Of a DNA stretch of 16,916 nt, positions 3,804 to 16,916 are shown in pieces. The stretch lies in UHGV virus genome UHGV-0071988; one strand, written 5' to 3'. The stretch comes from a virus. The notes below the pieces were generated by a model. It was not told the origin of the DNA and ran no database searches. It saw only the letters and a list, made by a program, of their open reading frames with translations. Positions within the stretch are counted from its first letter, which is position 1; each line of letters opens with the position of its first letter. A program made the translations under genes and the position numbers.

Positions 3804-3879
3804 TGGTGGCCCCTACCGGATTTGAACCGATGACCGTGCGATTATGAGTCGCCTGCTCTAACCACTGAGCTAAGGGGCC
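3804..3879 (-). tRNA. tRNA with anticodon CAU, tRNA-Ile2 (lysidine-type)-like; 76 nt including encoded CCA
   Basis: Minus-strand sequence GGCCCCTTAGCTCAGTGGTTAGAGCAGGCGACTCATAATCGCACGGTCATCGGTTCAAATCCGGTAGGGGCCACCA folds as a cloverleaf (7-bp acceptor stem, D-arm GCTC/GAGC, anticodon loop CTCATAA, T-loop TTCAAAT). Acceptor stem and D-arm match E. coli ileX as recalled from memory; Met isotype not excluded. Confidence 0.85.
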
Positions 3880-12225: not shown

Positions 12226-12882
12226 ATGAAAAGCAACGACGAGAACATCAAGAAAGAAATAGGTCTGCGCATTCAGACTCTACGGAAACAATCCGGCATG
12301 ACTGCCGGAGATCTCCAGCAAGTCACTGGAATAGGCTTAAGCACCTTGCAGAACTATGAGGCCGGATTAAGACAACCATCTATACCTGCCATCAAGAAAA
12401 TCGCGCACGCCCTGAAAGCATCAGCGCCTTATATCGCGTGCTTAACAGATAACCCGTTCCCATCCCAGAATACTAACGCTCCTGTTATTCCTGGGCTTGT
12501 AGCTATAAAAAATGACATAGCATCGCACGCCGGAGAAAAGCCAGTGCTGGCGATAGAACAGGAGATTCTACGAAGCAAGAACATCAACCCATCGTCTCTG
12601 TTAGTTCTCCAGAGCAACGATGAGTTAATGTCACCAACAATATACCCTGGCTCCCAAGTCCTGATTAATACAGACGATACAGAGATTCATGAGGGGATCT
12701 ATGCCCTTGAAGACAGAAATGGCCTGGTTGTTTTGAGGCACTGTAGAGTCATACCGGGTGACAATGCTGTTATGCTGTCAACCGAAAGGGATGCTGAAAT
12801 GAACACTAAGCATCTGAATAACGAGGAATTTAAGCGTTATAAAGTTCTTGGCCGCGTAGTTAGTGTTGTCAACTGGTTATGA
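12226..12882 (+). CDS. CI-like phage repressor (N-terminal HTH_XRE, C-terminal S24 LexA-like peptidase domain)
   Basis: 218 aa. N-terminal IGLRIQTLRKQSGMTAGDLQQVTGIGLSTLQNYEAG is an XRE-type HTH. C-terminal half has LMSPTIYPGSQVLIN (candidate Ser nucleophile) and a later conserved Lys region, typical of autocleaving repressors. Divergent from the Cro-like gene across the operators. Confidence 0.85.
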   Translation: MKSNDENIKKEIGLRIQTLRKQSGMTAGDLQQVTGIGLSTLQNYEAGLRQPSIPAIKKIAHALKASAPYIACLTDNPFPSQNTNAPVIPGLVAIKNDIASHAGEKPVLAIEQEILRSKNINPSSLLVLQSNDELMSPTIYPGSQVLINTDDTEIHEGIYALEDRNGLVVLRHCRVIPGDNAVMLSTERDAEMNTKHLNNEEFKRYKVLGRVVSVVNWL

Positions 12883-14667: not shown

Positions 14668-14689
14668 AAAAAAGGCCCCCGAAGGGGCC
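14668..14689 (-). terminator. Intrinsic terminator, minus-strand oriented (GGCCCC-cgaa-GGGGCC plus U-run)
   Basis: Hairpin at 14674-14689 with A6 on the plus strand at 14668-14673, giving a U-run after the stem for a minus-strand transcript. No U-run in the plus direction. Confidence 0.55.
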
Positions 14690-15204
14690 TAATCGCTACT
14701 TGCTGCTAATGTTTATCGTCACATTCAGAGCGTTATCAGTAATCTTCCAACCCTCTCCATGTGGCGTAAACAAAGCTCCAGTAACAACGATCAAAATACA
14801 TACGTATTTCCTCATTGTATTGGCCCTCGCAGGCCGTTTCACGGCATCTCCACCGACGAAAATGACGCGAGAGCAAGCACACCGCTTGTGCTTGCGTGTA
14901 CGGCAAGTGGATGATCCTTTCCTTAAAGTCGGTGCCCGGGTGCGAATCGGCGAAAAGGCCCCAAGCCATATTACACGTCCTCGCCTTCATAATGAAGGAA
15001 TAACAAATGCTTTTATTACATGTAATTACATCCGAAGAAGTTAAAAAACTTCATTCTGCATGAACTAAGGAACTAAATTTCTTTATATGAATAGTGGACT
15101 ATTCACCTCAGTTGAGTAAGAATAGATACGCCGCTTGTGCTTGCGTGGTTGTTTATACAACGACGTTATGCTGAAAGGACCGCGAATCCGATCAGCACGA
15201 AAGA

Positions 15205-15231
15205 ACCGTCCTCAAAAGGACGGTTTTTTTG
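15205..15231 (+). terminator. Intrinsic terminator, plus-strand oriented (ACCGTCC-tcaaaa-GGACGGT plus T7)
   Basis: Stem 15205-15211 / 15218-15224 followed by TTTTTTT (15224-15230). The stop codon of the minus-strand regulator gene (15212-15214) lies in its loop. Confidence 0.6.
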
Positions 15232-15784
15232 TTTCTTCACTCATTAAAAACCGTCCAAGACCTGTTGATGACTCCAGATAATCTCGATTATCCATATCAG
15301 CACCGTTATCGACCCAATGTCTATATGCTTCATTGCAACAATACATTACAGCAGTTGGAGTAACAGGGAAGCCGCCCCCAAATGAGAATCCCATTGAGCT
15401 AATGCTAATTCTTTCGAATGGCCTATTTCTCAATGCTTCAAACCCCTTACTGTTGAAGTAACTCAGCATCAGAGGCAAAAGGTTATCCTCGTCCTGATCG
15501 ATTGTTCCCGGGAAAAAGTAGTAACCACAGCGATTAAATTCGGGAATCAGTTTTTCTACCAACAACATGAAATTCATTGGGCTAATATTAAGGGCAGAGC
15601 AAGCACCAAAAAGAGCATCAACCGTTAATACAGACTGCCCGTTCTCTATCTTTGTCCATGCGTTTGGTGTTTTTCCGGCAGCTTGAGCCAGTACTCCTTG
15701 ATGCACACCTCTTTCAAGCCTAAGTTCTTTTATGATCATTAGGTGAATTGTTGAAAAACATGAATTTTTTGATGTTTCAGTCAT
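15212..15784 (-). CDS. XRE-family HTH transcriptional regulator with uncharacterised C-terminal domain (190 aa), AT-rich
   Basis: Strong SD GAGGAGG 6 nt upstream. N-terminal IIKELRLERGVHQGVLAQAAGKTPNAWTKIENGQSVLTVDALFGACSALNISP is a Cro/C1-type HTH. Divergent from the antirepressor-like operon. Confidence 0.7.
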   Translation of the reverse strand: MTETSKNSCFSTIHLMIIKELRLERGVHQGVLAQAAGKTPNAWTKIENGQSVLTVDALFGACSALNISPMNFMLLVEKLIPEFNRCGYYFFPGTIDQDEDNLLPLMLSYFNSKGFEALRNRPFERISISSMGFSFGGGFPVTPTAVMYCCNEAYRHWVDNGADMDNRDYLESSTGLGRFLMSEETKKPSF

Positions 15785-15854
15785 TTTTTACCTCCTCTGC
15801 ATTAAATTCACTACCAATTTCCAATCTCAAAAGAAACCACAATCAATACCATCT

Positions 15855-15981
15855 AGTTCCCTACATTCACAGCATACCCAAAAAACTGGATATGAAGCAA
15901 ATTTTTTCGCAAATAAATCACAACAAGTTCCTTATACTCATATATAAGTTCCCTACATTCATATAATGTTCCCAACAATCC
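15855..15981. repeat. Four direct repeats (consensus AGTTCCCTACATTCA), three of them phased at 20-21 bp
   Basis: Identical 15-mers at 15855-15869 and 15947-15961; variants at 15926-15940 (12/15) and 15967-15981 (about 10/15). Located between the XRE regulator gene and the rightward operon. Confidence 0.6.
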
Positions 15982-16358
15982 AGTGTCAAACAAATTTGAT
16001 TGGTCAAATCATGCGCTTAATGAGCAGAAAATTCCGTTTTTCAAACCCACGCTATGTGGTTGTCTCTGTTAAAATCTCGCCGTATTGACATGAATGCGCC
16101 ATTGGTGGACACTTTCCGAGCCGTAGCAAAATCTACGGCCGGGATTGGAACCCCGTAGACACAATGGCGCATACCGCGTTAGCGGTTTTTTTATGCGTAA
16201 AGCACTGCTACACCCAAATTATGGTGGGGCGTGCGGGGGAGTCGTAAGACTCGCCGGTTCGTCATTGTGTCCGGTAGTTCCAACCCTGCACGTCTCACCA
16301 CCCAATGATTGGAACCTGACGGTGGTGAGTATCCTTAACCTTTAAGGGAATCATCACA

Positions 16359-16550
16359 ATGACAAACCTACCCCATGACTATTACGTCAACCTCGTAAAG
16401 ATCCTTCTCAAGAAAGCCTCATACGCCGATAAATTCCGCCTGGCTGAAATAATCGAGCGCGAAGCTATGCGCATCGCCAGCAACGATAACGCTGTTTCTG
16501 ACGCAAAAATCTCCCTCGTAACCAAAGTAGTTATGGGAGGTGCAAAATGA
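16359..16550 (+). CDS. Hypothetical small protein (63 aa)
   Basis: ORF with SD AAGGGAA; stop overlaps the start of the next gene (ATGA). Confidence 0.5.
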   Translation: MTNLPHDYYVNLVKILLKKASYADKFRLAEIIEREAMRIASNDNAVSDAKISLVTKVVMGGAK

Positions 16551-16864
16551 AAACGCTTCCGACCGTTAACACCCTACAGCCTATCCTGCATAACCAAATC
16601 CCTGTCATTACTACCGAGTTACTGGCACAGCTTTACGGCGTATCTCCTGTACGCATTCGACAAAATCATCATGAGAATAAGGAACGCTTCATTGAAGGTA
16701 AGCACTACTTCAAAATTGAAGGTAACGAACTTCGAGAGTTAAAGCACAAAGTGACTCAAGATAATGATGTGAAGAACAAAAACTCTTTAAGAGATTCAGT
16801 TAATGACGCCCCCTCTAAAAGAGAGAGCGTCGAGCACAGAGTAGTTTTAAACTACTCTGTTTGA
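16547..16864 (+). CDS. ORF6N/KilA-N-like domain protein (antirepressor-like N-terminal domain, 105 aa)
   Basis: SD GGGAGG 6 nt upstream. Segment ITTELLAQLYGVSPVRIRQNHHENKERFIEGKHYFKIEGNELRELK matches my recollection of the ORF6N/Bro-N-type domain found at the N-terminus of phage antirepressors. Confidence 0.55.
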   Translation: MKTLPTVNTLQPILHNQIPVITTELLAQLYGVSPVRIRQNHHENKERFIEGKHYFKIEGNELRELKHKVTQDNDVKNKNSLRDSVNDAPSKRESVEHRVVLNYSV

Positions 16865-16916
16865 AGTGGCACACTGAATTTGGCCACCTGAACAGAGGTG
16901 ATATGCTCACCTCAGA

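Follow-up and report, generated by a model that had tools for sequence, protein, structure and literature searches.

A C4 antisense RNA module of the P1 immI type, with an IsrK-like leader, in an Escherichia coli phage-plasmid

The window analyzed here (the whole of a 16,916-nucleotide stretch, UHGV virus genome UHGV-0071988) contains, upstream of a broken ORF6N antirepressor gene, a C4 antisense RNA that is preceded on the same strand by an IsrK-like leader. The family membership of this C4/immI module, its structure, the complementarity of its recognition segments and their covariation are established by covariance-model matches, folding and comparison with related loci. Taken as a whole, and together with the mechanism proposed below, the region is very probably a member of the P1-type C4/immI switches, carried by a ~48-kb E. 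coli phage-plasmid. The C4/immI system itself is ordinary and already well described. The window copy is a new, unannotated member with particulars of its own: a b' sequence absent from the sample of related regions, a b2 site located on a start codon, a leader ORF other than Icd, and a broken ORF6N antirepressor.

In P1 and P7, immI comprises the c4 antisense RNA, icd and ant1/ant2 (Citron & Schuster 1990; RF01695), and the annotated P1 genome gives the order a1, b1, c4, a2, b2, icd and ant1, with an overlap between icd and ant1. The order of the parts in the window, a1-b1-C4(b',a')-a2-b2-small ORF-ant with an ATGA overlap, is the same.

Components of the module

Scanning with Rfam models at their curated thresholds yields two matches on one strand, separated by 24 nt. 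The C4 model (RF01695) is matched over its full length (model positions 1-87) at 16217-16305 on the + strand, with 77.8 bits against a gathering score of 45; the corresponding scores are 68.8 bits in P1 and 69 bits in Gifsy-1. The isrK model (RF01394) is matched over positions 1-77 at 16120-16192, also on the + strand, with 70 bits against a cut-off of 50. In a permissive scan, a third model, RF03163, covers part of the leader at 16107-16159 with 39.8 bits, below its cut-off of 46.7. This model describes two hairpins bearing a1, is labelled 'c4-a1b1, a1, b1 targets of C4 antisense RNA', and is grouped with C4 in clan CL00128; both the c4 and the c4-a1b1 motifs were described by Weinberg et al. 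2010 (PMC2864571). It overlaps the isrK match in P1, Gifsy-1 and the window, and isrK is placed outside clan CL00128 although the two models cover one element. The P1 leader scores 51 bits with c4-a1b1 and 35.1 bits, below threshold, with isrK; in Gifsy-1, c4-a1b1 scores 48.1 bits and overlaps isrK.

A sequence-only reading of this stretch had proposed c4-type control of an antirepressor operon by way of loop motifs and their complement, and had suggested a covariance-model scan. That proposal is borne out by the C4 and isrK matches, both above their gathering thresholds at the exact site, by the P1 order of the parts and by motif covariation across about 100 loci. The parts are listed here in order.

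16085..16113, + strand: candidate promoter, read from the sequence (-35 TTGACA at 16085-16090, 17-nt spacer, weak -10 GACACT at 16108-16113)
16120..16192, + strand: IsrK-like leader sRNA (RF01394), equivalent to the P1 a1/b1 leader and to Rfam c4-a1b1
16120-16126 / 16133-16139, + strand: leader hairpin 1, with 6 of 7 pairs changed on both sides
16140-16143 / 16152-16155, + strand: leader hairpin 2, with a1 in its loop
16143..16152, + strand: a1 target/decoy site GAUUGGAACC, with the core UUGGAAC at 16145-16151, a 7-nt Watson-Crick complement of a'
16159..16169, + strand: b1 target/decoy site ACACAAUGGCG, 11 bp with b' including one G-U, -18.9 kcal/mol
16173-16186 plus T7 to 16192, + strand: intrinsic terminator, from a terminator scan
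16217..16305, + strand: C4 antisense RNA (RF01695), with the 3' end ...CACCACCCA
16222-16238 / 16284-16300, + strand: C4 closing stem, 17 bp
16239-16243 / 16248-16252, + strand: C4 hairpin 1
16253-16257 / 16271-16275, + strand: C4 hairpin 2
16258..16270, + strand: b' recognition loop UUCGUCAUUGUGU, the loop of C4 hairpin 2, complement of b1 and b2
16277..16283, + strand: a' recognition segment GUUCCAA, in the single-stranded joint between hairpin 2 and the closing stem
16294-16302 / 16321-16329 (16294..16329), + strand: conserved a2-presenting hairpin, 9 bp, with arms CTCACCACC and GGTGGTGAG
16307..16316, + strand: a2 target site GAUUGGAACC, core at 16309-16315, directly 3' of C4, a 7-nt complement of a' (-8.8 kcal/mol)
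16321..16357, + strand: predicted hairpin, present in all minimum-energy folds, that would sequester the Shine-Dalgarno GGGA (16346-16349) and the bases 5' of the AUG
16355..16363, + strand: b2 target site CACAAUGAC, over the AUG (16359-16361) of the 63-aa ORF, a 9-nt complement of b' (-13.2 kcal/mol)
16359..16550, + strand: 63-aa leader ORF in the icd position (phrog_7886)
16547..16864, + strand: N-terminal fragment of the ORF6N antirepressor gene (PF10543), 105 codons, with its own Shine-Dalgarno GGGAGG at 16535-16540
16862..16916, + strand: IS911 end, 100% identical to the IS911 of Sf6

The motifs on which the sequence-only reading drew are present in the sequence: CCGTAG at 16121-16126 and 16153-16158, CTACGG at 16133-16138, TTGACA at 16085-16090, GATTGGAACC at 16143-16152, GTTCCAA at 16277-16283, and the two arms of the 9-bp hairpin at 16294-16302 and 16321-16329, which are perfect complements. 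The hairpin plus T7 at 16173-16192 was recovered independently by the terminator scan. The second copy of GATTGGAACC, which had been assigned to 16308-16317, is located at 16307-16316.

The transcript would start at G16120, downstream of the candidate promoter TTGACA-17-GACACT, and the isrK model starts at this same nucleotide. The candidate promoter aligns column for column with the better TTTACA-17-CATAGT and CTATAT(T) promoters of relatives. It was not detected by a consensus promoter scan, because its -10 element GACACT matches at only three of six positions. C4 is on the same strand as its target, and the scan found no intervening promoter. The 3' end of C4, ...CACCACC(C)A, is conserved among relatives.

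Folding and covariation of the recognition sites

Folding of the region, which the sequence-only reading had also suggested, finds it to be strongly structured: 16095-16362 folds at -110.3 kcal/mol, compared with -84.0 +/- 4.9 kcal/mol for dinucleotide shuffles (z = -5.4; 0 of 200 as good). Conservation was examined in a panel of 12 loci consisting of the window, three Yersinia phages, Klebsiella and Enterobacter phages, several lambdoid E. coli phages, P1 and Gifsy-1. The C4 fold is identical across this panel, hairpin 2 holding b' in its loop and a' being unpaired. When the leader hairpins, the terminator and the three C4 helices are considered together in the 12-sequence alignment, 97.7% of cells are paired and 19 pairs are changed on both sides, a result reached by 0 of 500 shuffles; controls in which the helices were slid attain at most 43%. 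For the three C4 helices alone, 100% of cells are paired in the 12 sequences, and the 13 pairs changed on both sides include covariation in all three helices. The 9-bp hairpin presenting a2 is likewise conserved across the 12 loci (92.6% of cells paired, 3 pairs changed on both sides; slid controls 30-66%). This hairpin and the C4 fold are mutually exclusive, because 16294-16302 serves as the 5' arm of the former and as one side, the 3' strand, of the closing stem in the latter.

The leader had also been proposed to form two mutually exclusive hairpins, with 16133-16138 pairing either with 16121-16126 or with 16153-16158. The second of these options does not survive comparison. It is paired in 45% of cells across the 12 loci, with 1 pair changed on both sides, which equals the shuffled and slid controls, and it is specific to the window.

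The complementary motifs are restricted in their occurrence. TTGGAAC is found twice in the 16.9-kb window, both times inside the region, and GTTCCAA once. The sequence-only reading had recognized this pair, in which UUGGAAC corresponds to a1 and a2 and GUUCCAA to a', and to that extent it stands; it overlooked the second pair, b' with b1 and b2, which is the one that touches the start codon. Matches between these sites were scored by an alignment-free search for the longest complement, since MAFFT loses the register of the short and variable a and b motifs. Across the 12-locus panel, which includes 9 distinct a' sequences, a' has a complement of at least 7 nt in both a1 and a2 in 12 of 12 loci, compared with a mean of 3.6 nt for non-cognate a' combinations. 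The b' segment tracks b1 and b2 in the same way. Within the clade of the window, the b2 sequence CACAATGAC is accompanied by the b' sequence GTCATTGTG, CACCATG by CCATGGTG, and CATCATGA by TCATGATG; the vB_YpM_41 type has a' CGCCAA and b' UCAUGAUG.

A wider sample came from scanning IMG/VR for a pattern anchored at the conserved ends of C4; at least 120 stretches were returned, and 88 unique regions among the matches listed were analyzed. These 88 regions contain 17 a' types and 34 b' types in 46 combinations, and the b' sequence of the window is not among the 34. Cognate complements of at least 7 nt are found for a2 in 98.9% of the 88 regions, a1 in 90.9%, b2 in 88.6% and b1 in 63.6%, whereas non-cognate pairs with different motifs reach this length in 10-11% of cases for a and 2-3% for b. 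The position of b2 also varies. In 63 of 78 other loci it covers the Shine-Dalgarno sequence and ends 7-12 nt before the ATG; the window and its two Yersinia-phage relatives have a b2 that overlaps the AUG.

Pairing energies were calculated with RNAduplex on the exposed segments, because algorithms limited to nested structures cannot represent loop-loop contacts; RNAcofold, which belongs to that class and is blind to kissing contacts, gives a gain of -2 to -3 kcal/mol for mature C4 with either the leader or the 5' UTR. The b'-a' segment of C4 pairs with the leader at -31.8 kcal/mol, a value equalled by 0 of 500 shuffles. The gap between a1 and b1 is 7 nt and that between b' and a' is 6 nt, and the leader and C4 are thus able to form a single long duplex. 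Treated as one duplex with the downstream region, C4 pairs at -20.2 kcal/mol, which is not significant (61 of 500 shuffles are equally good) because a2 and b2 sit 39 nt apart, and the claim that C4 pairs downstream therefore rests on covariation. The difference between the continuous leader duplex (-31.8 kcal/mol) and the split downstream sites (-8.8 and -13.2 kcal/mol) favors a leader that acts as a decoy, whether in cis or in trans.

In the unconstrained minimum-energy fold of 16120-16375, a1:a' and b1:b' are paired in cis with pair probabilities of 0.94-0.98. For the readthrough RNA starting at 16120, this cis-paired fold is preferred over the C4 fold by only 2.8-4.4 kcal/mol, and the positive control for the calculation, Gifsy-1, comes out 2.9 kcal/mol in the wrong direction relative to published gels. 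Since the margin is small and the control is mispredicted, the claim is confined to the two folds of the readthrough RNA being close in energy in this model.

Proposed mechanism and the interrupted antirepressor gene

The 63-aa ORF that begins at b2 matches phrog_7886, a PHROG of unknown function, over its full length (E = 2e-47); it has no Pfam family and no similarity to P1 Icd. Its stop codon overlaps the start of the ORF6N gene in an ATGA at 16547-16550. The ORF6N fragment matches PF10543 (E = 4e-16) as well as antirepressor PHROGs, and is 60% identical over 68 aa to the N-terminal part of Gifsy-1 AnrP. An intact homologue is 380 aa long, with ORF6N and Rha domains. The window retains the first 105 codons, the gene being cut at 16861/16862, and homology to relatives without the insertion ends at 16861. 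Beyond this point is one end of IS911, which is identical to the annotated IS911 of Shigella phage Sf6 and provides the stop codon. The sequence-only reading was thus right about an ORF6N antirepressor gene downstream of the RNA, and did not notice that IS911 cuts it.

The window encodes ParA and a cI-like repressor of the S24 type (12226-12882) and also has a divergent HTH gene; an HTH protein is encoded at 15212-15784. Its kin form a common family of ~48-kb circular E. coli plasmids that have also been isolated as phages, including the 48.5-kb plasmid of E. coli ATCC 25922 and the Yersinia phages vB_YpM_39, 41 and 44. This gene content and these relatives identify it as a phage-plasmid, like P1.

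The resemblance to P1 extends through the whole locus. In both, one strand carries in succession a promoter (a candidate one in the window), a leader with a1 and b1, and a C4 whose loop holds b' and whose 3' joint holds a'; a2 comes immediately next, b2 falls at the ribosome-binding site of the leader ORF, and this ORF overlaps the antirepressor gene in an ATGA. The C4 fold, the logic of heteroimmunity by a/b variation and the lifestyle of a plasmid prophage are also shared. However, a' is GUUCCAA in the window and CUGUCAA in P1, b2 covers the AUG rather than the Shine-Dalgarno sequence, and the window leader passes the isrK threshold, which the P1 leader (35.1 bits) does not. The leader ORF and antirepressor gene have the layout of P1 icd-ant but encode different proteins: a phrog_7886 protein unrelated to Icd, and an ORF6N(-Rha) antirepressor in place of Ant1, which is of the KilAC/ANT family. 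In P1 and P7, C4 is a substrate of RNase P (Hartmann et al. 1995, as cited in PMC11143913).

The promoter, the readthrough of the terminator, the processing, the direction of regulation and the decoy role are all putative in the following scheme. A single + strand transcript would begin at about 16120. Most transcripts would probably stop at the terminator (16173-16192), giving a 73-nt IsrK-like sRNA that contains a1 and b1. Those that read through would include C4 (16217-16305), which, by analogy with P1, may be released by RNase P. The released RNA would show b' in its hairpin loop and a' in its single-stranded joint, and these could pair with b2 (16355-16363), over the AUG, and a2 (16309-16315) on the mRNA. 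Such pairing would block translation of the 63-aa ORF, and expression of the ORF6N antirepressor would then be lost through the ATGA coupling and probably through polarity as well; with the antirepressor blocked, the primary repressor of the prophage would stay active. The a1/b1 leader could bind the b'-a' segment as one long duplex, either in cis in the readthrough RNA or in trans as an sRNA, and is most likely a decoy that sets the level of free C4, by analogy with the activation of anrP by IsrK in Gifsy-1. Since a and b would together form a two-part specificity code, only a cognate C4 should repress a given ant operon.

The destruction of the antirepressor by IS911 leaves the switch unable to induce its own element, and suggests that the window copy is not inducible by the antirepressor route. 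It may be, then, that the RNA module has been released from selection and is an inactive, decaying relic. The truncation at codon 105 of about 380 is in keeping with such an explanation, and in the closest relatives, which are 99.3% identical, the gene is already an incomplete pseudogene in RefSeq. On the other hand, the helices and the six recognition sites are all intact, and the C4 model scores higher than in P1 (77.8 versus 68.8 bits). The IS insertion may be very recent, and related phages entering the cell could still be targets of C4 and the leader in trans. Decay is a possibility to be taken seriously, if on the unlikely side. In a functional P1-type switch, an incoming relative of the same type could still have its ant operon repressed by C4 despite IS911.

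Relation to IsrK of Gifsy-1 and to other immunity RNAs

The pairing between leader and C4 has a counterpart in the Salmonella prophage Gifsy-1, in which compensatory mutation established that IsrK pairs with a downstream 'orf45' segment through G28/C162 and G31/C159 (Hershko-Shalev et al. 2016, PMC4825925). According to the same study, the cis helix renders the readthrough mRNA translationally silent, and this fold, structure A, was shown by native gels and compensatory mutants; short IsrK supplied in trans raises anrP translation more than 100-fold; and a stable processed RNA, STnc1160, occurs downstream of IsrK in Salmonella. If the Gifsy-1 numbering is taken from the Rfam isrK start, G28 and G31 lie within a1 (UUGGCGU, nt 26-32) and C159 and C162 within a' (ACGCCAA, nt 158-164), and the a1 and a' of the window are homologous to these two segments. 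Because the proven pairs are inside a1 and a' and a C4 is present in Gifsy-1, IsrK is the a1/b1 leader of a C4 operon. Judged by its place in the sequence, STnc1160 has the position of C4.

Further features are shared with Gifsy-1: a homologous leader sRNA with three hairpins including a terminator, a downstream C4 homologue, an ORF6N antirepressor and the homologous a1:a' pairing. The feature corresponding to isrK helix b-I, pairing of the middle of the leader with a downstream segment, is found in the window at -31.8 kcal/mol and forms part of the minimum-energy fold. The two loci differ in their translation. In Gifsy-1, orf45 runs for 45 codons from the AUG of the conserved UUAUGGUGGG, at the 5' edge of C4, through C4 to the start of anrP. 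There is no such frame, translated through C4 and coupled to the antirepressor, in the window, where the frame of this AUG has 8 codons; in P1 it has 14. Conversely, Gifsy-1 has no separate leader ORF, its b2 covers the Shine-Dalgarno sequence, and the prophage is integrated and lambdoid, with the module beside antQ.

A model closer to Gifsy-1 could be applied to the window, in which the C4 segment would act only in cis, within a silent readthrough mRNA, and an IsrK-like sRNA would be the sole trans regulator, as an activator. This model overlaps with the preferred explanation. The minimum-energy fold, with a1:a' and b1:b' paired in cis at probabilities of 0.94-0.98, resembles Gifsy-1 structure A, and the more than 100-fold activation of anrP translation by trans IsrK (PMC4825925) is what such a model describes. 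Several observations nonetheless make it unlikely. The Gifsy-1 mechanism requires translation of orf45 through C4, a frame that in the window ends after 8 codons. Covariation with a' and b' is at least as tight for a2 and b2 (98.9% and 88.6% in the 88 regions among the matches listed) as for a1 and b1, and this has no explanation if C4 does not pair downstream as well. Salmonella has a stable processed RNA, STnc1160, downstream of IsrK, and the energy gap that favors the cis fold is small, in a calculation that fails its Gifsy-1 control. The logic of P1 thus fits the window best, because the orf45 frame is closed and a discrete leader ORF begins at b2, as icd does.

Far less probable is a small protein of the orf45 or Pfam 'Ash' type, with conservation of the RNA as a secondary effect. 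PF10554 does match conceptual translations over the leader-C4-a2/b2 stretch in a related contig, and the orf45-like frame is open through C4 in Gifsy-1 and in 57 of the 88 IMG/VR regions among the matches listed. In the window, however, a TAA at 16245-16247 ends this frame after 8 codons and three other stops precede 16359, in P1 it closes after 14 codons, and the substitutions are compensatory for base pairing. The two ORFs at 16145-16345 and 16193-16345 match no Pfam family, and a protein-coding reading of 16145-16345 was rejected on these grounds, in agreement with the earlier view of the leader as non-coding. Least probable of all, and scarcely credible, is the sar-type alternative raised by the sequence-only reading, which would mean a minus-strand cis-antisense RNA across the ant ribosome-binding site, P22 sar being a true cis-antisense transcript from the opposite strand: the two systems share the general theme of a small RNA limiting antirepressor synthesis in an immI region, but the window has no Rfam sar match at E<=1 in 15780-16916 and no minus-strand promoter-like site in 15750-16600 in the promoter scan, and the complementary segments are all on one strand, with C4 made from that of its target.

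The P4 CI RNA with seqA and seqC provides another parallel to the P1-type switch, as cited in PMC4825925. It is likewise a processed immunity RNA on the same strand with copies of its target on both sides, but it acts by premature transcription termination. The Gifsy-1 authors called IsrK a structural homologue of SeqA and compared the locus with P4 seqA/CI (PMC4825925), and a 2025 review lists IsrK and c4 separately. That IsrK is the leader of a C4 operon is stated in neither publication; both present IsrK and c4 as systems unrelated to each other. The literature on P1 c4 and that on Salmonella IsrK, usually cited apart, are linked by the finding that the pairing proven for IsrK is the a1:a' helix of a C4 system. 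A broader proposal, for which the case is evenly balanced, is that IsrK, the 'putative' a1/b1 of P1 and c4-a1b1 are one element, a general C4 decoy, which would make immI a three-RNA switch composed of a decoy (an anti-antisense RNA), an antisense RNA and an mRNA, with a combinatorially reshuffled a/b code.

The a/b code is diverse and modular in enterobacterial temperate phages, and it bears on the prediction of cross-immunity and cross-induction between prophages. Copies of this RNA module with 71-94% identity are found in 187 phage records, many of them from Stx-converting phages. At the level of the window, the value of the result is mainly in annotation, as the RNAs are missing from the records of the phage-plasmid family. 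The GenBank and RefSeq records of relatives carry no RNA annotation at the locus, only hypothetical proteins. In the record of one relative, a CDS is drawn over C4.

Module boundaries and tandem units

A mosaic junction lies at about position 16040 of the window, near a terminator-like hairpin upstream of the immI module (the P1-type RNA switch of leader sRNA, C4 antisense RNA, a2 and b2).

16047-16059, terminator-like hairpin

Similarity to Yersinia phage vB_YpM_39 and to five E. coli plasmids (94-99% identity) begins only at 16040-16043 and runs rightwards, whereas the match to ATCC 25922-type plasmids spans 15800 to 16618. From these differing limits, the immI module behaves as an exchangeable cassette. 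In the single IMG/VR contig L045 (9289-11266, - strand), units of about 656 nt occur three in tandem, and in each of them a separate leader and C4 precede a Rha-like ORF. The specificities of the C4 recognition segments a'/b' differ in each unit (ACUGCGAA/UUUCCUUGAUCG, UACGCCAA/GUUCUAUGUUGA and AGUUCCAA/UUUCCGUAUGCG). Two such leader-C4 units are present in a second contig, L092 (7843-8578), and the tandem units in both could represent an array of immunity cassettes.

Protein-coding annotation across the RNA region

No annotation of C4 or the leader sRNA appears in the GenBank and RefSeq records examined. In Yersinia phage vB_YpM_41 (L002), a 'hypothetical protein' CDS (L002 880-1167) has been deposited that starts inside C4 and extends into the 63-aa ORF. 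Mechanical ORFs in L045 9289-9951 (- strand), which are conceptual translations of the leader-C4-a2/b2 region, match Pfam PF10554 (Phage_ASH) over residues 15-107. The matching frame is that of Gifsy-1 orf45, which is translated through C4, and its equivalent in the window lies at 16221-16358. Among the matches listed, this frame runs across C4 without a stop in 57 of the 88 regions recovered from IMG/VR with a pattern anchored on the conserved C4 ends; it is closed in the window, in its two Yersinia-phage relatives and in P1. Either some phages have an RNA region that codes for protein as well (dual coding), or PF10554 was partly built from translations of an RNA gene.

The interrupted antirepressor gene

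The ORF6N antirepressor gene is broken after codon 105 by an IS911 end, which supplies its TGA stop.

16862-16916, end of IS911, matching the annotated Shigella phage Sf6 copy at 100% identity

In insertion-free relatives, homology runs on beyond 16861, and the uninterrupted gene encodes 380 aa (ORF6N plus Rha). The closest E. coli relatives share 99.3% identity, and in them RefSeq already labels the gene an incomplete pseudogene.

Repeats, a ryfA match and a tRNA gene

Between the immI module and the divergent 190-aa HTH gene (15212-15784, - strand) sit direct repeats that are candidate operators or iterons.

15855-15961, three copies of the 15-nt direct repeat AGTTCCCTACATTCA, starting at 15855, 15926 and 15947

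Two of the three copies are spaced 21 nt, and by eye a further degenerate copy can be seen shortly downstream. The phage-plasmid also carries a ryfA match and a tRNA gene.

14668-14963, - strand, ryfA (RF00126), full-length Rfam match (132.9 bits versus a cut-off of 80)
3804-3879, - strand, tRNA-Met gene, anticodon CAU

The ryfA match adjoins the partition genes of the phage-plasmid, and is possibly a plasmid-borne copy acting as a type I toxin-antitoxin or addiction element.
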